A stretch of DNA of 64,000 bases from Candidatus Woesearchaeota archaeon (GCA_023898345.1 CP060218.1:767777-831776), one strand, 5' to 3'. Counted from the first letter of the stretch, positions 4,115 through 49,607 are shown. Numbers and translations are program-made. Notes: generated by a model not told the origin, from the sequence alone.

Positions 4115-4519
4115 ATGGCATTTAAAGAAGAATTACATTTTATTTTTTTGGGAATCTCAACAATATTAACATCATTTTTATTAGATTATTTATTTAATTA
4201 TGCTGAGATTTATTCGAAAATAAATTCAATTATTGCATTAGTATTATTTGGTTTGTTCTTAATTTTTATGACTAAACTAGTTTTGTTTCCAATAACAGCT
4301 TATTTTAATAAATTATTTTTACCTAAAGGATATAAATCAAGAAAATATCTTGATATTAATAATGATTTTAATCTACCAAGCACATCTATTATTACAATAT
4401 TTATTATAGATAATGTTTCAAGTTTATATTCATTAGATTATATTTATTTAGTTATTTTAGTTATTCCTATATTTTTAATAATTCATTATCTAAATGAAAA
4501 TTTCGAGATATATAGTTAA
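4115..4519 (+). CDS. Small integral membrane protein, hypothetical
   Basis: ATG at 4115 directly after helicase stop; multiple hydrophobic helices in translation. Confidence 0.4.
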   Translation: MAFKEELHFIFLGISTILTSFLLDYLFNYAEIYSKINSIIALVLFGLFLIFMTKLVLFPITAYFNKLFLPKGYKSRKYLDINNDFNLPSTSIITIFIIDNVSSLYSLDYIYLVILVIPIFLIIHYLNENFEIYS

Positions 4520-4578
4520 TCATGTTCATATTGATAAATGAACTCTAAAAAAATTATAGATGGTATGTAAAATAAAAT

Positions 4579-4761
4579 TCAAAACTCCAACAAATAAAAA
4601 CCTAAAGCACTTTTACCAATAATTGTGCATTCTAAAAATTTCTTTTTTAGTAAGTTTGGATTTATTCCCTTAGCAGAAACTCTAAAAGTCTCATATTTGT
4701 CATTTAAGAGGAATTTTCCTCTCTTCTCAGATTCAAATTCCATATATTTTGTCGTTTTCAT
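4579..4761 (-). CDS. Hypothetical small protein (60 aa)
   Basis: ORF only; position between membrane protein and integrase. Confidence 0.2.
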   Translation of the reverse strand: MKTTKYMEFESEKRGKFLLNDKYETFRVSAKGINPNLLKKKFLECTIIGKSALGFYLLEF

Positions 4762-4897
4762 AATATTCTAAAATTTGGTTATTTTTAACACTTTGCAAAG
4801 ACTATTAACTTCAATTTAAGCGATTTACACTCAAAATAATGAGAGAAATATTTCAAAACAAGTCTTAGTCTTAAAATGTCAAAAAAGTCTTCAAATA

Positions 4898-5809
4898 TCA
4901 ATGTCTAATCACCTCCAACACTTTTTCATATTCTTTTACTGCAATCTCTTTTTTATTTAAATAATGAGTCATCCCAACATTTTTTGAAGTTGACCTTCCA
5001 GATATGAAGTTTGCTATTTCAATTGCAACTCCTGCTTTAACCATTAAAGTAAATGAATACTTTCTTAGATACTTTAAATGAACTATTTTCTTATTATCTT
5101 GGGTATGATCTACAAATCTATTGAAGTATGTTTTATCAAATTTACCAATATGTTCTTTTAATTCATTATATAATTCTAATGTAAAGAATAGATAATAAGA
5201 TGATTTCTGACCTCTTAAATAGAAATTATTGTAAGTAACTATGCCGTTTTCATGTATTTCTATGTTCTTTTCATCAAAATTTTCAAAGAAATGTTTAACT
5301 TCTGTTGTCCTAGCTGTTGTTTCAATATAGAATCTATATAATAAATAATGTAATCTATCATATTTAGATACTTCTTTTACAGAGTTTTTAATCTCCAAAC
5401 ATGTAGGAATATAAGTATCAATATGAACTTCATTGTGAATTTTAATTCTTCTTCGGATGTTTTCAATTATATCTAAGTCTAATATATCAAACTCTTCTAA
5501 GTAATTCAGCCATACTCTAATTGCAACTCCTCCTTGTCTTTTGTTAATTTTTTCAAGAGCAATAGCATTTTTAATCTCTTCAATGGTATTAACACTAATC
5601 TCTTCAAACAATTTAGTTAGACAATTAAAAACAGATACTGCGTAAGTTCTTGTGAACTTTTTTAAAGTATATACTTTATATTCATTTTTTGTCTTAAAGT
5701 ATATACTTTTTAATTCTATAAAATTTTGATTTTTTGGCGTAAAATTTTCTAAATTTTGAGAAATTTGCTGTTGATTAGAAATTTGTGAGGAGGCGTATTT
5801 GCCCCCTAG
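4898..5809 (-). CDS. Tyrosine recombinase / integrase (N-terminus uncertain)
   Basis: C-terminal HLKYLRKYSFT...GRS...GMTHY resembles the H-x-x-R ... Y catalytic region of tyrosine recombinases; track ORF runs on to 5980 through the tRNA, which is unlikely to be coding; no in-frame ATG after the tRNA, first TTG is much further in. Confidence 0.55.
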   Translation of the reverse strand, partial: LGGKYASSQISNQQQISQNLENFTPKNQNFIELKSIYFKTKNEYKVYTLKKFTRTYAVSVFNCLTKLFEEISVNTIEEIKNAIALEKINKRQGGVAIRVWLNYLEEFDILDLDIIENIRRRIKIHNEVHIDTYIPTCLEIKNSVKEVSKYDRLHYLLYRFYIETTARTTEVKHFFENFDEKNIEIHENGIVTYNNFYLRGQKSSYYLFFTLELYNELKEHIGKFDKTYFNRFVDHTQDNKKIVHLKYLRKYSFTLMVKAGVAIEIANFISGRSTSKNVGMTHYLNKKEIAVKEYEKVLEVIRH

Positions 5810-6041: not shown

Positions 6042-7946
6042 TTAAGGGAAGGACCCTCCTGCTTTGTACTTTGGAGTTCTTTGAGGGGACGTGAGACGCA
6101 GATCTTCACTCATAGCAGCCCCTTCACGCACTGTCCCTTCCATTTTTTTTGTTTCTATTAGCTCTTTTACACTTTTTTGATCTCCCGTGAAATGGGGATT
6201 ATTAAGCATTTCTAGAAAAAGAAACTCCCAACAAAGCATATTATGAAGTGTGAAATACTCTTTATTGAGCAGTTGTTTTGCGTTTGTTGAAATTTTTTTA
6301 TACAATTTCTCGTCCTTAAGGAGCTCGTACATTCGTTGTGCAACCAGCTCACAGTTGCCTGTTCCTACAATAAAACCTGTTTCCCCATCTTTTACTTGTA
6401 AAGGAAGTCCGCCACTTGCAGACACTACAACTGGTACTCCCTTTGCCAAACTTTCTGTAACTTTAACTTCAAATCCTTCCTTATGAGATAATTGCAATGC
6501 TAGTTTTGCTCCTCGAAGAAGAGTATTAAGAATTCTGTCTGATGGCGGAAGAAGAGAGACTTTGACGTCTTTTTGGAAGGCTTTGTATTTTGTGGAAAGG
6601 AGTGTTTTTGTTTCTGTATAAATTCTCTCTCTGTCGGGATCGTCAATTGAACTGTGCCCTGCAATAACAAGTTGAGGAATAGAACATTTCTCTTTCTTTA
6701 ATTTTTTCCTTAGAAGGGCATAACTTTTAAGAAGATCTGGAATTCCTTTTGAAGGATCAAATCGAGCAACCTGAATAAGATACTCTCTTGTCGTATCTAG
6801 TTCTTCTTCTGCATGTTCTCGCTGTAATTTGTTAAATACACTATAATAATAAGCCATTTGTTCAGAACTAAGGTCTTTGTTCAGCCCATCGTAAGGATCT
6901 GTTGTTGCTGGCATCAGAACTGTTTTGCTTTTTGCAACGTTTGAAGGAATAAATTCAAGCATAGGATGACTAATATAAAGATCGGCTAGTTCAAGGTTTG
7001 AGGAGATAAAATGCCAAGTTTTGTACTGTGGTGAGTTCTCTTTTGTTGCAAGAGTGCTTTCGATTTGAATGTGGGAGCGATAAATCACTTTGCATGTGGG
7101 ATTGATCCCCTTTATCCATGGAATGAGTCCACTTGGTTGTGGATCATCAATAACTACAATGTCTGCCTGATGAATGAGTGGCCCGAACATTTGAGCATTG
7201 TCTTCACTCCACTTCCTGAATTTGCTTATCTCTTCTAAAGTTAATTCGACATTTTTTGGCGCCACATTTTGAAGAATATTGTGAAACTTCTTCTTTGTAA
7301 TTTCAAAAATTTCTTGGTCTGCTTTCTTTGTATGCCAACTAGCATTGATCCCGAACATACGCATTGTTCTGATGAGAGCATGACGCATTAAAGCTACTCC
7401 GCCACCCCGAGGGGTTGAATTAATGAAGACAATCTTCTTTCCTTTGAGAGCCTGAGCATAGCGTTTAACATCTTCAAGTGTTCCTTTATTCTCGTGTTCT
7501 TCCACATATCTTTTATCGACAAGATCTGTTACTTCAACTTCATTATATTTGCCAAGGCGGACAATAATATGGTCGAATTCATCAAATCGCTGCATAAGCT
7601 GCTTTGCTAATTCTTGCGACAGAAGGGAACACTGAGAGATTACCTCTTTTCTTTTTGTTATAAAGGGAATAATATCAAGTTCAAGCCAAATTTTTGTCGC
7701 TAGTTTTTCAAATTTCTTTTTATTCCCTTCAATTTCTAGAGCAACACAGCGAAATTTATTTTTTTTCAAATAACTCTCAATCCAGTCAAAAATGACCTCC
7801 TCAACATTCTTCTTCCCAAAACTTACTTCTTCATTTGCTGCAGGGATTTGTCGTGAAAGAATAGAACAGTATATTTTCGTTTTGTTCACTGCAACTCCGA
7901 TATAGACAGAGGGTTTTGGCTCAGTATGTTCTTTTTGTCCTGCCAT
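6042..7946 (-). CDS. Glycosyltransferase, GT4-like (trehalose synthase/phosphorylase-like)
   Basis: NSTPRGGGVA motif and C-terminal EGFEVKVTESLAKGVPVV region typical of retaining GT-B glycosyltransferases. Confidence 0.5.
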   Translation of the reverse strand: MAGQKEHTEPKPSVYIGVAVNKTKIYCSILSRQIPAANEEVSFGKKNVEEVIFDWIESYLKKNKFRCVALEIEGNKKKFEKLATKIWLELDIIPFITKRKEVISQCSLLSQELAKQLMQRFDEFDHIIVRLGKYNEVEVTDLVDKRYVEEHENKGTLEDVKRYAQALKGKKIVFINSTPRGGGVALMRHALIRTMRMFGINASWHTKKADQEIFEITKKKFHNILQNVAPKNVELTLEEISKFRKWSEDNAQMFGPLIHQADIVVIDDPQPSGLIPWIKGINPTCKVIYRSHIQIESTLATKENSPQYKTWHFISSNLELADLYISHPMLEFIPSNVAKSKTVLMPATTDPYDGLNKDLSSEQMAYYYSVFNKLQREHAEEELDTTREYLIQVARFDPSKGIPDLLKSYALLRKKLKKEKCSIPQLVIAGHSSIDDPDRERIYTETKTLLSTKYKAFQKDVKVSLLPPSDRILNTLLRGAKLALQLSHKEGFEVKVTESLAKGVPVVVSASGGLPLQVKDGETGFIVGTGNCELVAQRMYELLKDEKLYKKISTNAKQLLNKEYFTLHNMLCWEFLFLEMLNNPHFTGDQKSVKELIETKKMEGTVREGAAMSEDLRLTSPQRTPKYKAGGSFP

Positions 7947-8111
7947 TTTTTATCTTAAAGTTACTTGAGTTAATTTTTTTTTTAAATGTTCTTTTTAACC
8001 AAGGGAAAGAAAAATCTCTCCGAATTTTGAAAAACCTCTATAATTCTCAAAGAGTTTTTAGAAACCACACTATCAAAAAAATACTTAAAAGCAATAAAAA
8101 ACACTTTTGAC

Positions 8112-8773: not shown

Positions 8774-9829
8774 TTATTTCACTTCAATAATCTCACTGCA
8801 CAGCGCCGCCAAATCTTTGTCCACGTGTTGCCCCGTCATAATACATTCATCCTTTACTTTGGCTAAAACAGAGTTCACATTCTTTTTATCTAAAAGTTTT
8901 CGTTCGAGAGCATCTAGTAGTTCATCTGCAACAACGGGAGTACGTTTTCGAAGAGCTGTCTCCAAAAGTTGCATTGCTGCTTTTGCCTCTCGGATGTCCT
9001 GCTCACTCGTCCCTTCTCTGTACGCACCCCGCATTCTGTCGTAACGCGAAGATCCTGTAACTGCAAAATCGAAATTTCCATAAAGAGCATTTTCACTGGA
9101 CCAACGTTTTAAGGCTATGAAAAAGTCACGTTCTGGATACAAGGGGTCTGCTTTGTCGAAGTAGATTAACTTTGGACTTTTCTTTTCAATAAATGATAAG
9201 ATTAGTCGACCAAAGGCATATGATGATTTTCCTCTCCCATTTCCTATAATCGCACTTAAAGACTGTTGTTTGAAAGGGTTCCCTTGCTTTTTGTACACAA
9301 TCTCACTTGTAAGTTGAAACTCTGAACTTAAGATATCCTGCTCCTTTTCATTAGAAGAAAGAAATACGAATTCTGTTCTTGGACTACGTCTACGAAGAAA
9401 AGCTAGGAGCGGAATCTTCTTTATAGTCTGAAGGGAGCAATGGTCAAAAATTACTAATTCGTATGTATCAAGCTGCCGCCAGAAAAAAGAAACATCTAAG
9501 TTTGAAAACTCAACCTGTGGAATAATACTTTGTGAAAGTTTAGTTTCATCAAGAAAGGTGTACAAATCAATACGCATTCTCGGTAAAGAATGAACAAATT
9601 TTTGGTTCAAAGAAATATTTTCTAGAAACTGGTGTAATTTTCTTGCATTTTTCTTTTCAGAAACAAAGGCCGTCCTCAAACCTAAACTCGCTCCCTCAAG
9701 AAGAAGACCAACGCTTAAGGGAGAAAGCTCAGAACTTGTCCTGTCCTGAAAATACCTTGATTTTGCTAGACTTCTTTCAATCATACAAGGCCTTTTTTGT
9801 AGGGCTATATAAAAATATGCGTGTGTCAA
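8774..9829 (-). CDS. Hypothetical protein with CobA/CobO-like P-loop segment
   Basis: IIGNGRGKSSYAFG resembles the GNGKGKTTAAFG loop of corrinoid adenosyltransferase-like proteins; weak. Confidence 0.3.
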   Translation of the reverse strand: MTHAYFYIALQKRPCMIERSLAKSRYFQDRTSSELSPLSVGLLLEGASLGLRTAFVSEKKNARKLHQFLENISLNQKFVHSLPRMRIDLYTFLDETKLSQSIIPQVEFSNLDVSFFWRQLDTYELVIFDHCSLQTIKKIPLLAFLRRRSPRTEFVFLSSNEKEQDILSSEFQLTSEIVYKKQGNPFKQQSLSAIIGNGRGKSSYAFGRLILSFIEKKSPKLIYFDKADPLYPERDFFIALKRWSSENALYGNFDFAVTGSSRYDRMRGAYREGTSEQDIREAKAAMQLLETALRKRTPVVADELLDALERKLLDKKNVNSVLAKVKDECIMTGQHVDKDLAALCSEIIEVK

Positions 9830-10874: not shown

Positions 10875-11234
10875 TTATTTGTCCTGAAATACTCCCTTAA
10901 CTTCAAGCTGAAAACTTTCAATCTCGCCAGGAACCTTGTCTTTTAGAAAATCCAAATTCTCCAACTCAAAGTGAACGATCTTTCCCGTCTCTGTGCACTC
11001 GAAATGACAATGACTTCTTTTTGTAGAAGAATAAATAGTCTTTCCTTGACAGGTGTACGAATAAATCTGATTCCTTTCTCTCGCATCCTTGAGGAAACGA
11101 TAAATTGTTGCAATACCTATTTTTTTATCGACTTTTGCGACTTTCTCTAACAAGGCTTCAGCATTGAAAAAAGTTTTTGTCTTTCTAATCTCCTCCTCAA
11201 TAACTTCCTTTTGTCTTGTTTGTCTGCTTTTCAT
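10875..11234 (-). CDS. Fur-family metal-responsive regulator (likely Zur)
   Basis: Fur-like DNA-binding N-terminus and HCHFEC/CQGK metal sites; adjacent to zinc uptake genes; ATG at 11234 preferred over track TTG at 11255. Confidence 0.7.
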   Translation of the reverse strand: MKSRQTRQKEVIEEEIRKTKTFFNAEALLEKVAKVDKKIGIATIYRFLKDARERNQIYSYTCQGKTIYSSTKRSHCHFECTETGKIVHFELENLDFLKDKVPGEIESFQLEVKGVFQDK

Positions 11235-11235
11235 C

Positions 11236-11258
11236 TTATTGAGAATCAAAGTCAATTA
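11236..11258. promoter_or_regulatory. Candidate Zur operator TTATTGA-N9-TCAATTA between TATA-like box and regulator start
   Basis: 7-bp inverted repeat spaced by 9 bp; same motif upstream of both zinc operons. Confidence 0.45.
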
Positions 11259-11573
11259 TTTTATAAGACTTGCGAGAAACAGAAACAGAAAAAGCACAGA
11301 AAATACAAATTTTTAAATCGAGTTCCATTTTTCCCAAAAATGAAAACACATTCTGATTTTTTTCCTCAAAAACAAACGTATAGAATACTTACAAAAACCT
11401 TATCTCTTTACGAACTCTCAACCCTAAATCCAGCAAAATACAATTCTCTAACACTCAGACTTCTAGGAACACTAAACCCTGACTGGAAACAAGTTGAAAA
11501 CAAACTATTAGAAAAATTTTTAGAAAGCTATTTGGAAATTCCTGTCTCCTCATGCACAAATAAGAGAAAAAAT

Positions 11574-11714
11574 AAGTAAAGAAATCGCTAAAATATGCCT
11601 ATCCCAATCGGAGCAGAGCTCCGGGGCATTACGGCAATTTTCAAGACGCGATTTCTAACTCCCAGCTGGGTGGTCGCAGCAGAGCTGCGGGGTATAAATA
11701 CCCAGCTAAGGAAT
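11574..11714 (+). repeat. 141-bp intergenic repeat, copy 1 (about 98% identical to 31333-31472)
   Basis: Manual alignment: two substitutions and one 1-bp indel; contains palindrome CCCAGCTGGG and internal direct repeat GCAGAGCT(C/G)CGGGG. Confidence 0.7.
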
Positions 11715-11836
11715 CATTGGAACAAGAGCCCAGAGTACAGCCTTACTATCTCCTCTCCCTCAAAACAAATCCTTGAACTCTCACAAAGAAGAAGATATAG
11801 ATTTTGAAAGAATTTTTCTAATAATTGTCCTGAGAG

Positions 11837-11870
11837 TTATTGATAATAAGACTCAATAATATTTATAAAA
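11837..11870 (+). promoter_or_regulatory. Candidate Zur operator (TTATTGA-N9-TCAATAA) plus TATA box TTTATAAAA for the first CobW-type gene
   Basis: 34-bp block identical to 14208-14241; TATA about 25 bp upstream of ATG 11892, implying a leaderless transcript. Confidence 0.5.
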
Positions 11871-11891
11871 TTCCTTCAGTTGCACTTGAAC

Positions 11892-13175
11892 ATGGAAAAC
11901 AAACTCCCCGTTACACTCTTAAGTGGCTTTTTAGGCTCAGGAAAAACAACACTCCTCAATCACATTCTCCACAACAGAGGAAATCTAAAAGTTGCCGTCA
12001 TTGTAAACGACATGTCAGAAGTAAACATCGATGCAAACTTGATTAAAAATGGCGACGCCAAACTTTCGCGGACAGAGGAAAAACTCGTCCAAATGGAAAA
12101 TGGTTGTATCTGTTGTACACTGCGAGAAGACCTTCTAGTAGAAATAAAAAAACTTGCTGAAGAAAAAAAATTTGATTATCTTGTTATCGAAAGTACTGGC
12201 ATAGCAGAACCCCTTCCCGTAGCAGAGACCTTCACCTTTGCCAACGAAAAAGGAAACTCCCTCTCCGACTTTGCGCGCCTCGACACCATTGTAACCGTCG
12301 TTGATGCCTTTAATTTCTTCAATGATTTTTATTCAAAAGAATCTCTCAATGAAAGAGGAGAAAGTTTAGGAGAAGAAGACGAAAGAACCATTGTGAATCT
12401 GCTTGTCGATCAAATTGAATTTTCAAACGTAATCATTCTCAATAAGATTGAAAAGTTACAAGAAGAAGAAAAAAAGAAAATTAAAGCAATTATCAGAAAT
12501 CTCAACAGAGACGCCAAAATACTCGAGACCTCCTACTCAAAAGTAGATTTGAAAGAAATCATACATACAAAGCTCTTTGATTTTGAAAAAGCAGCTCAGG
12601 CTCCTGGATGGCTAAAAGAATTACGAGGAGAACACACTCCAGAAACAGAAGAATACGGAATTTCTTCCTTTGTGTACAGAGCGCGAAAACCTTTTCACCC
12701 AGAAAGATTAAAGGCCCTTTTTTCTGCTAAACTTTTTTCAGGAATTATCAGAGCGAAAGGATATTTCTGGATTGCTACAAGAAACAACATTGCTTTAACT
12801 TTGGCGGTTGCCGGAAAAATTCTAGAGTACAGCGTTGCAGGTTTCTGGTATGGGACAATGCCAAAAAAAGAAATTCAAAAAGACAAGGAACTTTGGGACT
12901 ATCTAAAAACAGTCTGGGAAGAACCATTTGGCGACAGACGACAAGAACTTGTGTTCATTGGAACTGACTATAATAAAGAAGAAATTATGAAAGAACTCGA
13001 CAAAGCACTTTTAACAGACGAAGAAATGAAAGTATCTCCTCAAGAATGGAACACCACCTTTACAGACCCCTTTCCAAAATGGGACATCCCAGAAGAAAGT
13101 GAAGAAGAAGCAGAGAAAAGATTTCAAGAAGAATTGGAAGCTATTCAAGAAGAAAAAGAAAAAATCTTAGGATAA
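11892..13175 (+). CDS. CobW/COG0523-family GTPase, putative zinc metallochaperone
   Basis: [10 protein letters not shown]-loop, CICCTL motif, CobW-like C-terminal domain; ATG 11892 preferred over track TTG 11880. Confidence 0.8.
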
Positions 13176-13177
13176 AA

Positions 13178-14191
13178 ATGTCTTCTTCACCTTTTCCAGA
13201 TACAAGAATCCCTCTTATAATTGTAACAGGATTCCTAGGTTCAGGAAAAACAAGCTTTGTCAACCACATTCTAGCATCACTTACAAACAAAAAAGTTGTC
13301 GTTATAGAAAATGAATTTGCAGAATTAGGTATTGATTCTCGTATTATCAAAAAAAGTAAAGACTCAAAAATTTTTGAACTAAACAATGGCTGTATTTGCT
13401 GTTCTATGAATGGAGAATTGGAAGGCGTTTTTGCCGAGATAGTAAAAAACAAAGAACACTGGGATTATGTCATCATAGAGACGACAGGCGTTGCAGACCC
13501 TTCTCCCATAATCAGCAATTTCTTTTCAAATCCTTTGCTCTGTGAAGAATTTAGACTAGACTGCATGTACACACTTGTCGACTGCAAAAACTTTTTCAAA
13601 CAAATCCAACGAGAATACGAAACAAAAAAACAAATTGCCTTTGCGAACAAAATACTCCTTAACAAAATAGACCTTGTTGAAGAAGAGGAAAAAGAAAAAA
13701 TAAAAAAAGAAATCTCAAAACTCAATCCAGATTCACAGATAAGCGAAACAACACACGCCAAAATTCCACTTCAACACATTTTTGAAGAATCTGCCTTCGA
13801 TATTTCAGATCTTAAAAAGATAAAGAATTCTTTCCAATCCTTTAGTTTTTCTCCCTCTCTTGCACCCTCAGTTCTGACAAAGCCAGTACAAAGTCACGAC
13901 ATACAGTCATTTGGCATTTCCAGTGAAGGCGAAATACTTCTCCCAGAATTTGACTTTTTCATAAGAACACTCATAGAGCTCAAAAGAAATGACTTGTACA
14001 GAACAAAAGGCATCGTCAATCTCAAAGGAGCAAATCAGCCCCTTATTTTTCAAGGAATTCATGATGCCATAGAATGGTTTCCCGGTCCACCATGGGGAGA
14101 AGATGAAAAGAGAGAAACAAAAATGATTTTTATTGGAAAAAATTTGGATAAGCAGGACATTGAAACTGCATTTAAGAAAATTCTTCACTAA
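13178..14191 (+). CDS. CobW/COG0523-family GTPase, second paralog
   Basis: [10 protein letters not shown]-loop and GCICCSM motif. Confidence 0.8.
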   Translation: MSSSPFPDTRIPLIIVTGFLGSGKTSFVNHILASLTNKKVVVIENEFAELGIDSRIIKKSKDSKIFELNNGCICCSMNGELEGVFAEIVKNKEHWDYVIIETTGVADPSPIISNFFSNPLLCEEFRLDCMYTLVDCKNFFKQIQREYETKKQIAFANKILLNKIDLVEEEEKEKIKKEISKLNPDSQISETTHAKIPLQHIFEESAFDISDLKKIKNSFQSFSFSPSLAPSVLTKPVQSHDIQSFGISSEGEILLPEFDFFIRTLIELKRNDLYRTKGIVNLKGANQPLIFQGIHDAIEWFPGPPWGEDEKRETKMIFIGKNLDKQDIETAFKKILH

Positions 14192-14206
14192 AAGTTTTAT
14201 CTCCTG

Positions 14207-14240
14207 CTATTGATAATAAGACTCAATAATATTTATAAAA
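14207..14240 (+). promoter_or_regulatory. Candidate Zur operator (cTATTGA-N9-TCAATAA) plus TATA box for the znuABC operon
   Basis: Identical to the motif at 11838-11871; ATG at 14261. Confidence 0.5.
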
Positions 14241-14260
14241 TAAAATACAAATCTTAGAAT

Positions 14261-15235
14261 ATGAAAAAAAGTCTCGTTTTCATTATGCTCCTTATCGGAG
14301 TTCTTCTTGCATCATGTAGCAGTACAAACACAAGCCAACAAAGTACAAAGCTAGCTGATGAAAACTCTCTCTCTGAAAAACCGACAATCGTAACAACCTT
14401 TTATCCCGTCGAAGAAATTTCCAAAGCTATTCTTGGCGACACAGCAAATGTCGAAGTTCTTGTCGGCTCTGGCGTCGAACCGCATTCGTACGAACCAACT
14501 CCGACACAAATCATAGAACTTTCCAAAGCAGATTCCTTTGTCACCATGGACGGAATGTTTGAACACATTGAAGAAGCAATTATAGAAGCAAACCCAAGTA
14601 TCAAAGTAATTCCGGCAACTCAAAATCTCCCTCTTTTGAAAAATGAAGAAGAGGATGAACACGATCACGAAGATGAAGAACATGACGAGCACGAAGAAGA
14701 AGAGCACGAGCATGATCACGGGGAATACGACCCGCATGTTTGGCTTTCTATTGAGAACATGAAAACGATGACACAAGACGTTCTCGACCAACTTATTGTT
14801 TTGTACCCCGAACACAAGGACATGTACGAAGCAAACGCCAAAGCCTACGAAGAACAACTCGACGAACTTGAAACCCAATACACACAAACACTCAGCAATT
14901 GTTCACAAAACATCATCATCGTCAATCACAAAGCCTTTGCCTACCTTGGACACGAATACGGATTTGAACAAATTTCCGTTGCAGGATTCACGCCAGAATC
15001 AGAACCAAGTCCAAAAGCAATACAAAATGTCGTAGACGAAGCAAAAGAACACTCCCTCAAATATGTATTTTCAGAAGGACAAATAGACCCAAAAACAGCA
15101 CAAACAATTGCCGATGATATAGGAGGAGAAGTACTTGAACTTTACCCTATCAAAATGAACGAAAACCAAAACTACTTTTCCATCATGAGAACAAACTTAG
15201 AAAAACTAGCAATAGGACTAGAATGTTCAAATTAG
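14261..15235 (+). CDS. znuA: Zinc ABC transporter substrate-binding lipoprotein (ZnuA-like) with His/Asp/Glu-rich loop
   Basis: Signal/lipobox-like LLASCSS, acidic His-rich loop EEEDEHDHEDEEHDEHEEEEHEHDH, cluster I substrate-binding fold. Confidence 0.8.
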   Translation: MKKSLVFIMLLIGVLLASCSSTNTSQQSTKLADENSLSEKPTIVTTFYPVEEISKAILGDTANVEVLVGSGVEPHSYEPTPTQIIELSKADSFVTMDGMFEHIEEAIIEANPSIKVIPATQNLPLLKNEEEDEHDHEDEEHDEHEEEEHEHDHGEYDPHVWLSIENMKTMTQDVLDQLIVLYPEHKDMYEANAKAYEEQLDELETQYTQTLSNCSQNIIIVNHKAFAYLGHEYGFEQISVAGFTPESEPSPKAIQNVVDEAKEHSLKYVFSEGQIDPKTAQTIADDIGGEVLELYPIKMNENQNYFSIMRTNLEKLAIGLECSN

Positions 15236-15268
15236 TTTTTTAAATAGAAAAGGAAAAGGAAATCTAAG

Positions 15269-15967
15269 ATGCAAGAACCAATAATTGAAATTAAAGATTT
15301 AACATATTCTTATCACCAAGAACAAAACATACTCGAAAACATCTCTCTTTCCATACACAAAGGTGACTTAGTTGCCATTATCGGTCACAACGGCTCCGGA
15401 AAATCAACACTCGTCAAACTTATAGCAGGCTTGCTCGAACAAAAAACAGAAAGCATAACACTACGAGGAAAACTCTCCTACATTCCACAAAAAGTCAGTT
15501 CAGACAACAACTTCCCCGCCAAAGTAAAGGAAATCCTTGACCTCGAATGCTGTGATTGCAAACTACGTGACGAAGTCCTCAAAAATTTAGGAATAGACGA
15601 GTTTGTCGAAAAACAATTCAAAGTTCTCTCTGGCGGCCAACAACAAAGAGTCCTTATTGCACTTGCACTCCTTTCAAATCCAGACATCCTCATTCTCGAC
15701 GAACCGACAGTTGGCGTGGATACAAAAACCCAAGAAGACTTTTACAAATTGCTCAAAAAACTCCACAAAGAAAGAGAACTCACTATCCTCTTTGTCACAC
15801 ACGACACAGGAATGATCTCTGATTACTTCACAAAAATAATTTGCCTAGACAATAAAAAAGCGCACATGGACGAAGCAAAAAACACAGACAAAGTTCTCCA
15901 CTCTGGTTACGGAGAGCACTTCCACGAAGTCCATCATCACCACCACAAAACAAAGGAGAGCAACTAA
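15269..15967 (+). CDS. znuC: Zinc ABC transporter ATPase (ZnuC-like) with His-rich C-terminal tail
   Basis: Walker A GHNGSGKST, signature LSGGQQQR, Walker B ILILDEP, tail HFHEVHHHHHK. Confidence 0.8.
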   Translation: MQEPIIEIKDLTYSYHQEQNILENISLSIHKGDLVAIIGHNGSGKSTLVKLIAGLLEQKTESITLRGKLSYIPQKVSSDNNFPAKVKEILDLECCDCKLRDEVLKNLGIDEFVEKQFKVLSGGQQQRVLIALALLSNPDILILDEPTVGVDTKTQEDFYKLLKKLHKERELTILFVTHDTGMISDYFTKIICLDNKKAHMDEAKNTDKVLHSGYGEHFHEVHHHHHKTKESN

Positions 15968-15968
15968 G

Positions 15969-16766
15969 ATGTTTGAAATACTAAGTTACGAGTTTATGCA
16001 AAGAGCACTTTTGGGAGGAATAATTATTAGTACAGCAAGTGCGCTCATAGGAGTTTTTCTTGTCCTCAAACGACTTTCACTTTTGGGAGATTCACTCGCA
16101 CACGCTTCCTTTGGCGGCATTGCACTCGGCTTTGTCACAGGCTGGAACCCCCTTCTCACAGCACTCGCCTTTGTCACGCTAGCATCACTTGGCATCGACA
16201 GACTTGTGAACAAACTTAAAGTGTACGGAGAAAGTGCAATTGCTCTCATGCTCTCCTTTGGAATGGCACTCGCACTCCTACTCATAGGAATTGCAAAGAA
16301 AATGGACTACAATATCTTCTCCTATCTTTTTGGTTCTATCCTCACGATAAACTCCTTTGACATTGCACTCGCAGCGACAGTCTTAGCTCTCATTCTCATC
16401 TTTTACTTTTTCAACTACAAAATTCTCCTTTATTCAGCCTTCAATCAAGACATAGCGCTCGTACGAAACAAAAGAACAAAACTCATTGACAAACTCTTCA
16501 TCATGCTCAGTGCAGTAACCATAGTCATTTCCATAAGAGCCGTCGGAATCCTTCTTATCTCAGCACTTCTTGTCATTCCAGCACTCATTGGACTGCGCCT
16601 TTCAAAGTCTTTCAAATCCACAATTTTCATCGCCATACTCAGCTCTATCTGTGGCGTTCTTTTGGGAATCTTTCTTGCCTACTACTTTGATCTGCCTGCT
16701 GGAGGAACCATTGTCATGAGTCTGCTCTTTCTCTTTGTCCTGAGCCTTTTCTTTGGGAGAAAGTAA
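15969..16766 (+). CDS. znuB: Zinc/manganese ABC transporter permease (ZnuB-like)
   Basis: Polytopic membrane protein immediately downstream of the ATPase; 1-nt gap. Confidence 0.75.
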   Translation: MFEILSYEFMQRALLGGIIISTASALIGVFLVLKRLSLLGDSLAHASFGGIALGFVTGWNPLLTALAFVTLASLGIDRLVNKLKVYGESAIALMLSFGMALALLLIGIAKKMDYNIFSYLFGSILTINSFDIALAATVLALILIFYFFNYKILLYSAFNQDIALVRNKRTKLIDKLFIMLSAVTIVISIRAVGILLISALLVIPALIGLRLSKSFKSTIFIAILSSICGVLLGIFLAYYFDLPAGGTIVMSLLFLFVLSLFFGRK

Positions 16767-31332: not shown

Positions 31333-31472
31333 AAGTAAAGAAATCGCTAAAATATGCCTATCCCAATCGGAGCAGAGCTCCGGGGCATTACGGCAATTTT
31401 CAAGACGCGATTTCTAACTCCCAGCTGGGTAGTCGCAGCAGAGCTGCTGGGTATAATACCCAGCTAAGGAAT
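31333..31472 (+). repeat. 140-bp intergenic repeat, copy 2 (matches 11574-11714)
   Basis: See copy 1; same orientation, about 20 kb apart. Confidence 0.7.
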
Positions 31473-31497
31473 TATGTAGGTTTTTTGTAGCTCTCCA

Positions 31498-33691: not shown

Positions 33692-34912
33692 TTATTTTTG
33701 TCTCTCTTCCAGTTTCTTTGTTCGTTTGCTATAGGGTGTTCTCGGAGTATAATACCCAGCTAAGGAATTAAAAACTTCTGCGGAGCACCATAGAATAAAA
33801 AACAAAACCCCTCCCATGATATAAAACCCGAGTTTGTATGAAGTGTTCATAAAAAAACCGATACTAAAAACAAGAGAAAAATTAAATACCATCGAAATTT
33901 GTCCTTTAATAGAAAGAATAGTCGCTTTGTACCTCTTATCAGCAATATAATGCTTTAGTAAATATCCATCGACAAATGTTCTTCTTCCCATTTCATATGC
34001 TCCAACAAGAATAAGAACAAAAGCTACTACATAAAAGGAATTTGAAAAAGCAATAATAAAAAATGATAACGGAAAAAAAACTGTGTCGAAAAGAAGAATT
34101 TTTTTGATAGGTAAACTTTTTTCAAATCTTCCCAGATTTTTCCCCATAAAAAACTGAAGAAAAGCGGACAAACCCAAAACCACACCAAGTGCTACAATTG
34201 GAAAGCCAAGTGTTTCTAAATATGGAAATATAAAATTTGTTTTTGCAATAGAAAAACCTGTAATTGCTCCTGTAAACGTTGCTAAAGGCAAAAATAACGT
34301 TCCTTTAACTTCCTTGAATACTTGTAACAAAGAGATATGCTTTACTGATTTTTCAGGAAGTGTTGGATTCACAAGAGACAAAGCAAAAAGAAAACCAATA
34401 CTATCAAAACCTAACCCAATTAGGAGGGGAGTTTCTAAGCTAAGCTTTGTCGTATACGGAATAAGAGTAATAAGAACTGCACTAACAAGTGAAGCATAAG
34501 CAGTTATTTTGGTACTGATACTCATAAACTCATCTTCTTTTTTCAAACTTACAAGTGTTTCATGAAGAAATGCAGCTCTTGTGCCAGACTGGGCGGCAAA
34601 GGATAAGGAGGTAAAAATTGCTCCTAAAACAAAAAAAAGTAAAGAAGCACCATAGAGAAAACTCACTACTGCTAAAATCATAAATAGTTTAGCTAAAACT
34701 AGCATTTTTTTATGTCCAATTTTATCTGAGATGTATCCACTTGGAATTTCAAAAAGAAACTCTGCCAAATATCCCATTCCAGACCAAAAGCCGATTTGAA
34801 CAGCATTTGCGTTTGGTAAAGTTAAAAAATATAGAGAAAGAATTGGAAGATAATACCTTCTCTGTGTAAGCTGAAGAATAAATAATTTCCAGATATTATG
34901 CTGTAATTCCAT
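33692..34912 (-). CDS. MFS-type transporter (C-terminal about 30 aa likely read-through of an intergenic repeat)
   Basis: About 12 TM helices; 3' end overlaps the repeat block at 33735-33790. Confidence 0.6.
   Translation of the reverse strand: MELQHNIWKLFILQLTQRRYYLPILSLYFLTLPNANAVQIGFWSGMGYLAEFLFEIPSGYISDKIGHKKMLVLAKLFMILAVVSFLYGASLLFFVLGAIFTSLSFAAQSGTRAAFLHETLVSLKKEDEFMSISTKITAYASLVSAVLITLIPYTTKLSLETPLLIGLGFDSIGFLFALSLVNPTLPEKSVKHISLLQVFKEVKGTLFLPLATFTGAITGFSIAKTNFIFPYLETLGFPIVALGVVLGLSAFLQFFMGKNLGRFEKSLPIKKILLFDTVFFPLSFFIIAFSNSFYVVAFVLILVGAYEMGRRTFVDGYLLKHYIADKRYKATILSIKGQISMVFNFSLVFSIGFFMNTSYKLGFYIMGGVLFFILWCSAEVFNSLAGYYTPRTPYSKRTKKLEERQK
33735..33790. repeat. Composite repeat: hairpin-family element interrupted by a 22-bp fragment (33747-33768) of the 140-bp repeat
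   Basis: gttctcggag + gtataatacccagctaaggaat + taaaaacttctgcggagcac. Confidence 0.55.
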
Positions 34913-44369: not shown

Positions 44370-47300
44370 GTGAAAAAAATCTTACTTTTCTTAATCACAA
44401 CCCTCTGTACATTAACAAGCATTTTTGGAATCAGCACCCTTACAAGTTGCCAAACAATAAATGAATCAGGAGAATACATTCTTGAAAATACAAGCACCTA
44501 TTTTTCAGGAGAAGACAAGCCTTGTTTTACTATTAACTCCAATAACATTTCTTTAGACTGTAATGGAGAAACAATCTTAGGAAGTAACCTTAACTCAGGA
44601 ATTCTCATTAATGCTGTACAAAATATTACGATTAACAGTTGTAAAATTTCAAACTTCACGAAAGGACTTACACTCCAAAATTCAAATTATTCCACCATTA
44701 ATCGTGTAGAGAGCTCTAACACAGATACAGGAATTTTCATCATAAATTCAAACGAAATACTCATTTCTCGTTCCACCATAAAAAAAACAAACACCTCTCT
44801 TCAGATAGACAACACCACATCACTACTCATTCTTGATTTTTTTACTCAAGAAATAAAGAAGGGATTAGCTATCTCAAACTCAATTTCTCCCTTGATAGAG
44901 AATTTTGTCGTTCTAGAAGCCGACAAAGGAGCAACAATAACAAATACTAAAAATCTTTCACTCAAGTTCTTTATTGCTGAGAAAACAGGAACTGGACTGT
45001 ATGTCGAAAATGTAACTCTCTCAAATTTCTCTTCTGTATTTTTCGAAAATATTTCAAACATTGCATTCATAGTAAATAAATCCTCTAAAAATCTTCTCAA
45101 TTACAGTATCAGTTATGCAGCAAATAATGGTTTTTTATTCCAGAATTCAAACAACAACACTATTACAAATATTTCATTTTTAGAAACTTCTAATCTTAGC
45201 TGGACAGTTTATTTTTCAAATTCGGCAGATAATATTTTTTTTGCAAACGATTTACAAACAAAAAATAAAATTATTCGTACTAATAATGAATCTCAAAATA
45301 TTTGGACTTATTCAGTAAACGGGACATCTTATGGAAACTATTGGGACGATTTTCTTTGTTTCTCTTATGAAAATGAGAGCAATGCAAAAGCATGTACAAA
45401 TCCCTCTGTTTATTTAATCTCAACTTCAGAACAAGACATTGCCCCACAAACTAAACAAAATAAAAAGAATGCGTTTTTACTTACTGAATACAGTCGGCAT
45501 CCTTTGAACTACAATAAAAGCCTCGAAAGTATTTTTGATTCTATAACTTACCAAAATTCAGCTTCTTTGGCTTATAATACATGGAATAGTTTAAGTGGAA
45601 ATTTAAGTGGAGAAATAAAGCAGAATCTTACTTTAGATAATGGCAAGTTTACCATTCTAAATACTTCTGAAAAAATCCAAAAGGGACTATACTACAATGC
45701 ATCAGAAGAATTTCTGTCATACAAAATAGAAATCTCAAATCTTAACTTTACTAAAAATTTTGAAAATGAAAATAAAGCAAAAATAAATATTATTGGAACT
45801 CCAATAATGCTGCTTGGTAAACAATATGCCATCTTACAATTTAAGAATCAAAGTTCTTTTTTCAATTCCCTTACAATTGGAGAAGCCAAAGGAAAAATTT
45901 TCATTACAGAAAACTCAATTCAAACTCTAAACCTTAAAAACTCCCAAGTAAATATAAGCCTGATTACGGTATCAGAAAAAAATAAAGTACTTGCAAAAAT
46001 TAATGAGCAGTATATTTTTTTCAACCTCTATGAAACTTTAGAAATCGACAATTATTATTTCACACTAGCATCACTCCGTTTAGCTGAAACCGAGAATGAA
46101 AAAACAGTGGCAGAGTTTATTATTTCAGACAAAATCATAGAATTAAACGATTCTCAATACGTTAAAGTAAATGGTTACGAACTTAATGAAACAAATTTTG
46201 AAACTAATTATATTGTTACTTCAAATTTTTCAGAGGAACTTTCCCAAATTGATATAAAATATTATGTAAAAAATGAAACCTTCCTCTCTGAAAATCAAAG
46301 CTTAGAAGACATTGTTTTTTCCTCCTTTGCAATTAGCTATGAAGGAATAAACCCTCTAACATACTCGACTTTAGACATAACAACAACAAATTCCACAATC
46401 AATTTTAATGGGACATTCAAAAATAATATACAAATCCCAAATGAAATCACCTTAATAACAAACAGTTCAGAAAACTCTCCTCTCTATTTAGGAACAAGTT
46501 CAAAACGAGTATATCATCAAGGATCAGATTTAATAAATATACCTCTCCTATTTCAAGAAAATTCATTAAGGGGTATAGAATATCTTGGAGGCACCACTAT
46601 TGGATTTAATATCACAACACTACCAACAGACATTCCAGAAAACCTCATCCTATTTAGACTCTACGATCAAGACGAATTTTATCTGTACAAAATAAATTCC
46701 ATTAACACTACAAACAAAACGATAAATTTTAGTGAAATTTTGACTTCCCGCTCAACAACATTAAACATAGGTGAACTTGAAAATCAACTCATCCCTAACC
46801 TCAGTCCTGGAACAATTTTCAATAACTCTGACACATTCTTTCTTAATCTTTCAAATTTAGGAAATCCAGATTTGCCACTCACTAATTTTTTCTATGTGAA
46901 TTTTCTTGAATCTGAAACTGAAAACTTTAATTCAACAACAAAAACAGCCTTTCTTAACTTTAGTTATGACTTAAATAAGATTAGCCTAGATGAAAACTCC
47001 CCGAAACCAGATGACTTTTTTCTCTCTTTTTTAAGAGCAGAAAATTCTTCTGAGAATATTACTTGTTATATTGAAAATCCAAATCTTTTCCTCTTTCAGA
47101 AAAAATTTAACAACGGAACAGAATATGAATCTTACATTGATAACTACGGCACAGAGATTTTTATTAACTCATTAAAAAAAGATACTGTAAGACTTAACAT
47201 CCCAGAAAAAGAAGTTCAAGCAGTAGTGACCCTGTATTTTGGGGAAGAAAACACAACACAAGTAAAAGAAATCTTTCCTACTCCTAATACTTCGCTACTC

Positions 47301-49607
47301 AGTTCAAACAAAGTAAATACTTCTTGGTATCTCCTGTGTAAAGAAAATTGTACTCTTGATTCCTTCGCCATCTTTGTAATAGAAGAAAATCTCACCAATA
47401 CTCCTCGAAACTTAAATATTTTTTATTCTGCAAATCAACTTTCACCAAAGCTCCTAGAAATTTCTTTTGATACCTCCTATCTTCAGGGTTATCATTACAT
47501 TATTGCCAACCTTAATTTAAGCAATGGAAGTCAAGAAGTATTTACAGAATATTATTTTAATACTTATGAATATAATCTCACAAGTCTAAAAAACAAGATT
47601 CTTTCAGACGAAAATTTACTTCTAAATGTCTCTTTTGTTTATGAGCCAGTTAAAGAGATTTTCAATCCAGATAATAGAACATATTTTCTTTTATCATACT
47701 ATAACCTAACAACTCAAAATTATGAACATGTTAAATTTGGAAGTTATGAAATTCCCATAAGCAAATCCGGGGTTTATAATTTCACCCTTTTAGGATATCC
47801 TGATTCCTATCCAAAGCTAGGAAACTATTCTCTTTCCCTATTTACAAAAGATGCAAACCAAAAAGAAAAGCTTCAGTTTTCTGTGTATGAAAGAGCACCA
47901 AAAATAACTTCCATATCATTAGCAAATAATTCAGTAATCTCCTCTTCAAATCGAGGAGTCAAACTCATCCTCGGTTTTGATTCAAAAGTTTACAATCTCA
48001 GTTATCAAAATCTTGTTACGGGAAAAAACTATACTTTCTATAGCGAGAACCCCACTGAAATATGGAATATTAGTTTACTGTCAAACATAGGGGTGAATGT
48101 TCTAAATTTAACATTTGCGAATAAATATGGCCTCAAAAATTCCACCGTCCTAAATTACACACTAGTTTTAAATTTAAATGGAAGCAGTAATGATTCAGAT
48201 GGAGATGGAATTAATAACTCCGACGACAAAGTTTTTGGGAATAACTCAAACATTTATACAAATATAGAAAACCTTTCCTTACGAATAAACAATAGTGAAA
48301 ATATCAGCAAGATATTTAATTCTTCTTTAAACATAAGCCTATTTCGAGAAAATAGAAAAATTATAGAATTTGAAAAGAATTTTGCTAATGCTACAATAAA
48401 TTTAACAGAACTTGTAATAAGAGACACCAGAGAAGATAATCACTCCAGACTACTCATTTCAGGAATTGAACTCGAAGATAAAACAAAAAATCTCTATTTC
48501 GATTTACTAGGCGATACTGGCAAATTTGCATCTCTTTGCATAAAAGATGAAGACATTGAAGACTTCTCCGAAATGTCAATAAACTGTACCGGTTCAAATG
48601 AACTATATATTGCAGAAATCCCTTCGATAGTTGGAAACTATACCATTTCATACATAAATGCTTCAAATTCAACTGTTGAAATAACTGGTTTGTCTCACAG
48701 TGCTGTCAGCCAAGTTTGTACTGAGAACTGGACATATTCGGTTTGGTCTCCTTGCACAAACACTGTTCAAACACGAACAGCCACAGATTCAAACGCATGT
48801 GGTACAACAAACTCGCGAGAAAACTTAACACAAAGCTGTTCAGAAAGCAGTTCTGGAGGAGGAGGTACAAGCAGTTCTTCAAGTTCTCAAAAAAAAGAAA
48901 CTCCAGAGGATTCTAGTCAAAATGTAGAAAAAAATATGTTAAATCTCCCACCTAAATTTCAAGAACACTTTCAACTTTTAGTAAATGAAAATTCAAATCT
49001 TAATAAGAACTTAACAGGAATCAAAAAAATAACAATAAAAGAGAAGTCCTCAAATAAAACTATTCTCGAATTTGAGTTTAATTTTTCTTCAAGATTTCTT
49101 AATCTAAGCACAATAGAAATCCAGAAAGGAAAGCAAAGAGACAAAAACTACATAATAATTAAGGGCATAGAGTTATTCGGAGAAACAAAGATTCTTCACT
49201 TAAAAAGAAACAAAAACTCCTCTTTTGTTTGCATAAAAGATGAAGAGATTTCCTCCATATCAGAAATTTCTGAACAATGTGATGAAAAAAGTGAGTATTT
49301 TCTTCCCTGTGATTCTAGAGAATATGGAGGATATATGTGTAGAATAGAGACAGAAGAGTTTGTCATCTCAGGTTTACGACATAGTGCTGTACTTGAGAAA
49401 GAAAACCCAATAATAACCACAGAAGAAAAGGCAATTCAAGAAAAACAAATAGAAGTAAACAAAACAGTAACAGATCTTACTCCTGAAGTTGATAAAGTAG
49501 AGGATAAATCTCGAAAAATGCAATTAATCTTGTATTTAATTGGGGGAAGTATTCTGACTATTGGATTACTTGTAGTAATAATTTTACTCATCGTTAGAAA
49601 AAAATAA
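44370..49607 (+). CDS. Giant surface protein (1745 aa): signal peptide, parallel beta-helix-like repeats, C-terminal TM anchor
   Basis: N-terminal signal, repeated N.T/S-rich beta-helix-like segments, internal duplicated domain, C-terminal hydrophobic helix then RKK. Confidence 0.6.
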   Translation: MKKILLFLITTLCTLTSIFGISTLTSCQTINESGEYILENTSTYFSGEDKPCFTINSNNISLDCNGETILGSNLNSGILINAVQNITINSCKISNFTKGLTLQNSNYSTINRVESSNTDTGIFIINSNEILISRSTIKKTNTSLQIDNTTSLLILDFFTQEIKKGLAISNSISPLIENFVVLEADKGATITNTKNLSLKFFIAEKTGTGLYVENVTLSNFSSVFFENISNIAFIVNKSSKNLLNYSISYAANNGFLFQNSNNNTITNISFLETSNLSWTVYFSNSADNIFFANDLQTKNKIIRTNNESQNIWTYSVNGTSYGNYWDDFLCFSYENESNAKACTNPSVYLISTSEQDIAPQTKQNKKNAFLLTEYSRHPLNYNKSLESIFDSITYQNSASLAYNTWNSLSGNLSGEIKQNLTLDNGKFTILNTSEKIQKGLYYNASEEFLSYKIEISNLNFTKNFENENKAKINIIGTPIMLLGKQYAILQFKNQSSFFNSLTIGEAKGKIFITENSIQTLNLKNSQVNISLITVSEKNKVLAKINEQYIFFNLYETLEIDNYYFTLASLRLAETENEKTVAEFIISDKIIELNDSQYVKVNGYELNETNFETNYIVTSNFSEELSQIDIKYYVKNETFLSENQSLEDIVFSSFAISYEGINPLTYSTLDITTTNSTINFNGTFKNNIQIPNEITLITNSSENSPLYLGTSSKRVYHQGSDLINIPLLFQENSLRGIEYLGGTTIGFNITTLPTDIPENLILFRLYDQDEFYLYKINSINTTNKTINFSEILTSRSTTLNIGELENQLIPNLSPGTIFNNSDTFFLNLSNLGNPDLPLTNFFYVNFLESETENFNSTTKTAFLNFSYDLNKISLDENSPKPDDFFLSFLRAENSSENITCYIENPNLFLFQKKFNNGTEYESYIDNYGTEIFINSLKKDTVRLNIPEKEVQAVVTLYFGEENTTQVKEIFPTPNTSLLSSNKVNTSWYLLCKENCTLDSFAIFVIEENLTNTPRNLNIFYSANQLSPKLLEISFDTSYLQGYHYIIANLNLSNGSQEVFTEYYFNTYEYNLTSLKNKILSDENLLLNVSFVYEPVKEIFNPDNRTYFLLSYYNLTTQNYEHVKFGSYEIPISKSGVYNFTLLGYPDSYPKLGNYSLSLFTKDANQKEKLQFSVYERAPKITSISLANNSVISSSNRGVKLILGFDSKVYNLSYQNLVTGKNYTFYSENPTEIWNISLLSNIGVNVLNLTFANKYGLKNSTVLNYTLVLNLNGSSNDSDGDGINNSDDKVFGNNSNIYTNIENLSLRINNSENISKIFNSSLNISLFRENRKIIEFEKNFANATINLTELVIRDTREDNHSRLLISGIELEDKTKNLYFDLLGDTGKFASLCIKDEDIEDFSEMSINCTGSNELYIAEIPSIVGNYTISYINASNSTVEITGLSHSAVSQVCTENWTYSVWSPCTNTVQTRTATDSNACGTTNSRENLTQSCSESSSGGGGTSSSSSSQKKETPEDSSQNVEKNMLNLPPKFQEHFQLLVNENSNLNKNLTGIKKITIKEKSSNKTILEFEFNFSSRFLNLSTIEIQKGKQRDKNYIIIKGIELFGETKILHLKRNKNSSFVCIKDEEISSISEISEQCDEKSEYFLPCDSREYGGYMCRIETEEFVISGLRHSAVLEKENPIITTEEKAIQEKQIEVNKTVTDLTPEVDKVEDKSRKMQLILYLIGGSILTIGLLVVIILLIVRKK

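Follow-up and report, generated by a model that had tools for sequence, protein, structure and literature searches.

Metal-dependent repression in archaea is known from MDR1 of Archaeoglobus, a repressor of the DtxR family. A DtxR-type regulator, ZntR, was also predicted by Haas et al. (2009) for the znuABC/COG0523 genes of methanogens, and the archaeal genomes available at that time had no recognisable Fur or Zur homolog (PMC2770081). Bacterial Zur regulons (e.g. those of B. subtilis, S. coelicolor and E. coli) have been reviewed, with mention of 7-1-7 Zur boxes (PMC6103462). SisPerR of Saccharolobus islandicus is an archaeal Fur-family repressor of metal-homeostasis genes that was studied experimentally; it senses peroxide via iron and controls dps, nirD and mntH (PMC11724291). 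Bidirectional BRE-TATA-BRE promoters (BRE, recognition element of transcription factor B, TFB), with one symmetric TATA and divergent starts ~50 bp apart, have been described in Pyrococcus furiosus (PMC6640164). Our literature search found no published archaeal Zur or DPANN zinc regulator, and SisPerR was the sole experimentally studied archaeal Fur-family protein found in it. Here we analyse a stretch of 64,000 nucleotides (nt) from a Candidatus Woesearchaeota archaeon (GCA_023898345.1 CP060218.1:767777-831776), called the window below, in which the gene of a 119-amino-acid (119-aa) Fur-family protein lies beside two COG0523 GTPase genes and the genes of a ZnuABC-like importer. We consider it probable that this protein is a Zur-like sensor, most probably of zinc, which represses three transcription units through a common operator-TATA module. 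None of the alternatives weighed below is favoured by the data.

A first-pass annotation of this DNA had pointed to one palindrome shared by three promoters. The 23-bp pattern TTATTGA-N9-TCAATAA was searched across the 64 kb and gave three matches at ≤1 mismatch as against 0.06 expected, a number that none of 100 shuffles reached, which bears the annotation out. The sites and the TATA boxes that belong to them are as follows.

11236-11258, minus strand: operator O1, in the regulator's own promoter (TTATTGAGAATCAAAGTCAATTA, 1 mismatch)
11259-11266, minus strand: regulator TATA box, TTATAAAA when read along the gene, with 24 nt to the ATG (11234-11232)
11837-11859, minus strand: operator O2, directly upstream of the TATA box of the COG0523 operon, at the BRE position (0 mismatches)
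11862-11869, plus strand: TATA box of the COG0523 operon (TTTATAAA), 22 nt before the ATG at 11892
14207-14229, minus strand: operator O3, directly upstream of the znuA TATA box (CTATTGA..., 1 mismatch)
14232-14239, plus strand: TATA box of znuA (TTTATAAA), 21 nt before the ATG at 14261

O1 is located downstream of the regulator's TATA and ends 1 nt ahead of the ATG, and O3 begins 16 nt past the stop codon of the second GTPase gene. The operator stands on one side of the TATA in the regulator promoter and on the opposite side in the uptake promoters, and no gene adjoins O2 or O3 on the side of the motif. In a matrix scan all three sites had the same polarity relative to their own TATA.

The same motif was looked for in related genomes. 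One genome per species was scanned, giving 80 loci with relatives of the regulator (45-67% identity) that are labelled mostly as metagenome-assembled genomes (MAGs) of Woese-, Pace- and Nanoarchaeota, along with some Thermoplasmatota and one Bathyarchaeia contig; the few loci with bacterial labels are probably binning errors. The annotation had set store by the presence of the motif at orthologous zinc loci, and 77 of the 80 loci carry it at ≤2 mismatches (102 matches in 0.99 Mb versus ~22 in shuffles), with ZIP, ZnuA or COG0523 across the TATA; in nearly all of them it is placed directly upstream of the Fur homolog. The consensus of 66 aligned sites is TTTAWAWA followed after 2 nt by TTATTGATTcTCATTATCAATAAG, and the family-wide palindrome is of the form 8-N7-8 (TTATTGAT-N7-ATCAATAA) with conserved inner positions. 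Strongly conserved, though outside the search pattern, are the TATA (positions -9 to -2, found at 75 of the 86 sites in orthologs), the inner positions 8-16 and a G at +24. A weight matrix was built solely from the 66 Fur-proximal sites of other genomes; it puts a site upstream of the Fur homolog at 64 sites across the 80 loci. When run on the window, it ranks O2 first (31.1 bits), O3 second (24.5 bits) and O1 third (23.7 bits), the next natural match having 11.9 bits and the maximum of 50 shuffles being 17.7 bits. Because the matrix came from foreign sites only, the three window sites are members of one conserved site family. Two further matches in the window were rejected as chance, both inside open reading frames (ORFs) and both under the shuffle maximum: 44830-44852 (2 mismatches, 6.9 bits; in a 1745-aa ORF at 44370-49607) and the 11.9-bit match itself (57291-57313, minus strand).

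The orthologous loci also share an arrangement of genes, whereby the regulator gene is read through the motif (most often with 1-4 nt between motif and ATG) and a partner gene lies across the same TATA. The ATG of the partner most often stands 31-33 nt away from the edge of the motif, corresponding to a distance of 21-23 nt to the TATA; the window has 22 and 21 nt here. The partner is a ZIP transporter (PF02535) at ~39 sites, ZnuA at 19 sites, COG0523 at 3 sites and a CbiA/MinD-like P-loop ATPase at 3 sites, and no iron-uptake gene was found among the identified motif neighbours in the orthologs. In the closest relatives (78% and 70% identity), fur diverges from znuABC or ZIP, and TATA, motif and ATG are arranged in the same way. 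The GTPase and znuA promoters of the window show the TATA-side arrangement, and its regulator promoter the through-motif arrangement. The fur ATG in the orthologs lies most often 26-29 nt from the TATA on its other side. Of 48 ortholog gene pairs, 17 fit both distance limits and have space for one TATA only. At many loci a single TATA is all that can be accommodated between the divergent ATGs, and both genes would then have to share it.

It had also been noted that an identical 34-bp block, TATA included, stands upstream of the first GTPase gene and of znuA. The blocks 11838-11871 and 14208-14241 are indeed 100% identical, span the operator and the TATA, and are flanked by unrelated sequence on both sides. 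As far as can be judged from the sequence, this block is organised like the module from which fur and a zinc-transporter gene diverge in related genomes, and the two blocks are most simply explained as copies of that module. Even the variable family positions (10, 12, -1 and 0) match between them, which suggests that the blocks are duplicates, because the identity extends to a few unconstrained positions. The same identity could be taken as the trace of a recent local duplication without regulatory meaning, but it stops at the edges of the operator-TATA module, both copies stand 21-22 nt before an ATG and the independent matrix scores are high for both; moreover, duplication and function are compatible, so we regard a duplication devoid of regulatory meaning as extremely improbable. 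On comparing strains, O2, its TATA and the leader were found to be identical while the sequence just upstream of O2 diverges.

Three further features of the ortholog set may be recorded here. The CbiA/MinD-like ATPase (~315 aa) on the TATA side occurs at 4153-5118 in locus L008, 5570-6526 in L017 and 5522-6466 in L035, and is a candidate member of the zinc regulon, possibly another metallochaperone. Two tandem operators 38 bp apart are found upstream of the Fur homolog in L053, labelled Bathyarchaeia (1.4 Mb; 7922-7944 and 7960-7982), and in L121, a metagenome contig (7368-7390 and 7406-7428), showing that the system extends beyond DPANN and that the number of sites varies. In L048, a Nanoarchaeia MAG, two Fur-family paralogs ~4.3 kb apart (7949 and 12281) each have a TATA-operator module, the first paired with ZnuA and the second with a 262-aa protein.

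A protein identical to the regulator is on record in several assemblies under Woesearchaeota and Nanoarchaeota source names (DPANN), and as the host is an archaeon, TTTATAAA can legitimately be read as a TATA box. The annotation had taken the TATA-to-ATG spacing to imply leaderless transcripts. The spacing itself (24, 22 and 21 nt) stands, and leaderless transcripts for the three units are plausible. In many other genes of the window a TATA-like octamer precedes the ATG by 21-27 nt, and the operon-internal genes (second GTPase, znuC and znuB) have AGGA, GGAG or AAGGAG a few nt upstream; such a pattern is usual in archaea with leaderless first genes and supports the annotation on this point. 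A scan for sigma-70 promoters and terminators found 2 as against 2.6 expected and is uninformative for an archaeon. A TATA-like TTTAAATA without operator lies at 15240-15249 in the znuA-znuC spacer, 22 nt before the znuC ATG at 15269; it may be an internal unregulated znuCB promoter, or a chance occurrence in AT-rich DNA.

The annotation had proposed a comparison of the motif with known Zur and Fur boxes. The classic Fur-family 7-1-7 box, as reportedly given by Baichoo and Helmann in 2002, is TGATAAT-N-ATTATCA. The core of the archaeal motif is a variant of this box: ATTATCA is matched exactly by the right half of the archaeal consensus, and TGATAAT by the left half of O2 and O3, which read TGATAAT-A-AGACTCA on the plus strand, whereas the family consensus is asymmetric (TGATTcT-C-ATTATCA) and reaches 23 bp through conserved TTAT/ATAA(G) flanks. 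The genes at the archaeal box have to do with zinc and not with iron.

How specific the motif is was assessed with an unbiased scan of metagenome contigs, in which the pattern TTATTGAT-N4-ATTATCAATAA gave 81 sites in 80 fetched stretches. A TATA was present at the expected position in 30 of these sites, and 28 of the 30 adjoin a Fur homolog, a ZIP or a Znu gene; among the 51 sites that have no such TATA, only 4 do so. The TATA-less sites mostly have a symmetric inner AAT, which turns them into TGATAAT-N-ATTATCA, and a few of them adjoin long Fur proteins (159-161 aa). As a probe, this pattern is therefore partly specific, with ~60% of its metagenome matches being without TATA and zinc genes, while in its TATA-coupled form the motif is not widespread at unrelated promoters, an occurrence that the annotation had named as fatal to its proposal. 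The rigid tie to TATA could also mean that the 23-mer belongs to the core promoter or is bound by some other factor, the Fur homolog, its putative ligand, being a mere neighbour. Against this, motif and Fur homolog are found together in 77 of the 80 loci, the dyad is of the type that Fur-family dimers read, and other promoters of the window carry a TATA without the motif, so that we hold such an element or factor to be very improbable.

The case for zinc comes from the genes at these promoters. The annotation had assigned a Fur-family regulator, two COG0523 GTPases and znuABC, and Pfam agrees for every gene.

10875-11234, minus strand: Fur-family regulator gene, candidate archaeal Zur (119 aa; Pfam PF01475 FUR, E=5e-16)
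11892-13175, plus strand: COG0523 GTPase of the ZigA type (427 aa; GCICC motif; Pfam cobW and CobW_C)
13178-14191, plus strand: second COG0523 GTPase (337 aa; GCICC motif; Pfam cobW and CobW_C)
14261-15235, plus strand: znuA-like substrate-binding lipoprotein with a loop rich in His, Asp and Glu (Pfam ZnuA, E=3.7e-78)
15269-15967, plus strand: znuC-like ATPase with a C-terminal His tract (Pfam ABC_tran)
15969-16766, plus strand: znuB-like permease (Pfam ABC-3, E=2.6e-65)

The two GTPase genes are separated by 2 nt and probably form one operon. The first GTPase exceeds the cut-off of the NCBIfam ZigA equivalog NF038288 (618.8 versus 600 bits) in addition to having GCICC, while the second scores 145.5 bits with the ZigA model, under the cut-off of 600, and has the GTPase model PRK11537 as its top NCBIfam match (204 bits versus a cut-off of 361). 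All parts of the importer were found by Pfam, namely a cluster A-I binding protein, an ABC-3 permease and an ATPase. The metal-binding tracts reported earlier are both seen in the translations, as an acidic and His-containing loop in ZnuA (EEEDEHDHEDEEHDEHEEEEHEHDH) and a His tail in ZnuC (HEVHHHHHK). A loop of His, Asp and Glu is typical of zinc-specific binding proteins. The ZigA match, the GCICC motifs, the ZnuA loop and the ZnuC tail all support zinc, and the NCBIfam models nearest to ZnuA (AztC, AdcA and ZnuA) are of zinc types, each reached under its own cut-off. Within the window no ZIP gene and no additional Fur paralog was found.

Membership of the regulator in the Fur family is clear. 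It scores 59.4 bits with PF01475 (gathering cut-off 23.1), and profile searches match it to Fur, Zur and PerR chains of the PDB down to E=6.6e-13. Its AlphaFold model (mean predicted local distance difference test, pLDDT, 91.1) shows three helices, a wing formed by a hairpin and a C-terminal part rich in beta structure, and all the top PDB matches listed by Foldseek are Fur-family proteins (Mur, Fur, PerR, Zur and Nur; probability 1.00). A-T-(I/V)-Y-R, the motif of the recognition helix, varies little or not at all among the homologs and fits a box core resembling the 7-1-7 box of the Fur family. Among 118 homologs, both CxxC pairs occur in 12, the C-terminal pair only in 62 and neither pair in 44. 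Nearly invariant in the homologs are C62, H75, C76, H77, C80, H88 and D95, a set of Cys, His and Asp which suggests, from the alignment, an unusual layout of the metal site. C62 was considered as a sensing cysteine of the Zur type and rejected, as its counterpart in S. coelicolor Zur is A70, a residue of the wing tip, and not C79.

Several points weigh against reading this protein as a zinc-sensing repressor. Searches of NCBIfam, of PDB sequences and profiles and of folds confirm the Fur family and do not separate Zur, Fur, Mur and PerR, the best NCBIfam subfamily models (PerR, Fur and Irr) giving 27-39 bits where their cut-offs are 146-200. The protein is without the canonical structural zinc site of four Cys, which is widespread but not universal in the Fur family, only C80 being kept of the four positions. 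Of the regulatory ligands D65, C79, H85 and H87 of S. coelicolor Zur, only H85 and H87 have counterparts (H75 and H77); Tyr58 takes the position of D65, and C79 falls in a gap. The importer proteins score below the cut-offs of the zinc equivalogs (AztC 170.5 versus 350 and ZnuA 131.1 versus 268 bits for the binding protein), as they do with their best models, AztA for the znuC product (153.9 versus 220 bits) and AztB for the znuB product (142.6 versus 280 bits). Transport of Mn or Fe is also within the range of ZIP proteins and of cluster A-I ABC importers. The core of the box is close to the iron-Fur box, and the degenerate pattern also matches apparent bacterial Fur boxes. Archaeal sites upstream of TATA can also activate. 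This genome was scanned over 64 kb only, so the regulon is seen in part. Finally, we infer binding by the 119-aa protein, zinc as the signal, repression and the transcription starts. What is observed is the sites themselves, how they are conserved and oriented, and that they go together with zinc genes, and we would let zinc specificity rest on the regulon and not on the sequence of the regulator.

Some of these points would suit the same circuit with another metal, that is an iron or manganese sensor (Fur- or Mur-like) with ZIP and ABC importers that bring in Fe or Mn. The resemblance of the box to Fur boxes and the Znu scores under the zinc cut-offs would then find an explanation, MntC-type models also score, the top structural match is Rhizobium Mur (5fd6) and the best PDB sequence matches are to Campylobacter Fur. 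But the AztC, AdcA and ZnuA models score above the Mn types, the first GTPase exceeds the cut-off for the ZigA zinc chaperone and ZnuA has its His/Asp/Glu loop, while the identified motif neighbours in the orthologs are ZIP, ZnuA, COG0523 and the CbiA-like ATPase, with no iron-uptake gene. A metal other than zinc is hence considered unlikely.

With zinc as the signal, the circuit may be pictured as follows. A metal-loaded dimer (possibly two dimers, given the 23-bp footprint) would bind the pseudo-palindrome, which is fused to the archaeal TATA at a fixed 0-2 nt. At the regulator promoter, a site occupied between TATA and the leaderless start would block the recruitment of RNA polymerase or initiation, giving autoregulation; archaeal repressors of the MDR1 type block the recruitment of RNA polymerase. 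In front of the GTPase operon and of znuACB the site directly adjoins the TATA on its BRE side, and the bound regulator would exclude TFB and the TATA-binding protein (TBP). Scarce zinc would release the protein, and the three units would be derepressed together, so that the ABC importer for zinc and both COG0523 metallochaperones are made. The opposite placement of the operator in the two promoter classes could instead point to a dual regulator that represses its own gene and activates the uptake promoters from upstream sites, for example as a metal-free protein. Among archaeal regulators, activation from sites upstream of the core promoter does occur. Bacterial Zur, too, can activate from boxes upstream of -35 (PMC6103462). 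However, the operator ends 2 nt from the TATA and so covers the BRE position, one site serves both directions in the orthologs, and it would make little sense for a metal-loaded sensor to activate uptake. Dual action is therefore judged quite unlikely, and repression of all three units remains our preferred account.

Set beside the bacterial Zur systems, the locus shares a dimeric regulator of the Fur family, an AT-rich pseudo-palindromic box that overlaps the core promoter and is also present, as is frequent though not required for Zur, at the regulator's own promoter, and targets that comprise znuABC, COG0523 GTPases and other zinc importers. It differs in its archaeal host, in a box fused to the TATA/BRE position and not to -35/-10, in a single site that can serve two divergent leaderless genes, and in a short protein (119 aa) without the Cys4 site and with different putative sensing residues; also, no ribosomal-protein paralogs were seen among the targets examined. 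As with MDR1 and ZntR, an ABC importer for metal (and COG0523) would be controlled in a metal-dependent way by an operator placed within the core promoter of an archaeon, though the regulator is of the Fur and not the DtxR family and the DNA motifs are different. SisPerR resembles the window regulator in having a degenerate structural zinc site (two Cys plus Asp in SisPerR), but the two belong to different clades and no common box is known. The geometry implied for the fur/ZIP and fur/znuA pairs of the orthologs is that of the Pyrococcus bidirectional promoters, except that there the second transcript is mostly non-functional antisense RNA, while here both directions are regulon genes and the operator is on one side.

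As a whole, this is ordinary Zur-type logic in an archaeal setting that has not been described; it overturns nothing and should not surprise a specialist. The elements that appear new from the sequence are the archaeal host, the fixed fusion of operator and TATA with its probable bidirectional use, and a clade of regulators that lack Cys4, for most of which the label is DPANN and for a few Thermoplasmatota or Bathyarchaeia. More tentatively, and with slightly less belief than doubt, the locus could be presented as the first defined archaeal Zur system, in which a largely Cys4-less clade with its own ligand set uses an operator 2 nt from a symmetric TATA, one dimer site silences two divergent leaderless transcripts by two mechanisms (polymerase block and BRE/TFB occlusion), and the portable module has been copied to the COG0523 operon and to znuACB. 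To our knowledge, DPANN archaea are uncultivated, have very small genomes and offer almost no described transcription regulation. The sharply defined DNA signal can be scanned for in any MAG and thereby predicts zinc-responsive genes, including the unannotated CbiA/MinD-like ATPase. The fixed TATA-operator geometry also provides a clean natural case of a bacterial-type repressor set against archaeal TBP, TFB and RNA polymerase on either side of a TATA. A gap would be filled as well, in that archaeal zinc control has so far been ascribed to the DtxR-type ZntR and earlier surveys were without an archaeal Zur (PMC2770081).

The 580-bp spacer between fur and the first COG0523 gene has contents of its own. 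A GC-rich dispersed repeat of ~137 nt (AGTAAAGAAATCGCTAAAATATGCC...CCCAGCTAAGG) occupies 11575-11711, with further copies at 31349-31475 (97% identical) and 62595-62656 (reverse strand, with an internal deletion) and a fragment at 33743-33768; it looks like a miniature mobile element. The repeat is missing at the same site in the strain record DAVJ01000057.1 and present in JACJVU010000001.1, which makes it an insertion polymorphism. Its minus strand folds with z = -3.0. A zinc-related RNA in this GC-rich patch was considered and rejected, since Rfam gave nothing convincing at E≤5 and the patch is a dispersed repeat that is absent in another strain. A small ORF on the plus strand at 11340-11579 (79 aa) has the TATA-like TTTTTAAA 22 nt before its ATG and no operator, and the fetched loci gave no homolog of it; where a strain is free of the insertion, the gene called at this position has 114 aa, the TAA of the insertion being what shortens the ORF of the window. 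On the downstream side of the regulator, the ORF at 8774-9829 (minus strand) has neither an operator nor an evident tie to the zinc genes; its N-terminal half of ~190 aa is without an assigned domain, and its C-terminal half carries a CobA/CobO/BtuR corrinoid adenosyltransferase domain.

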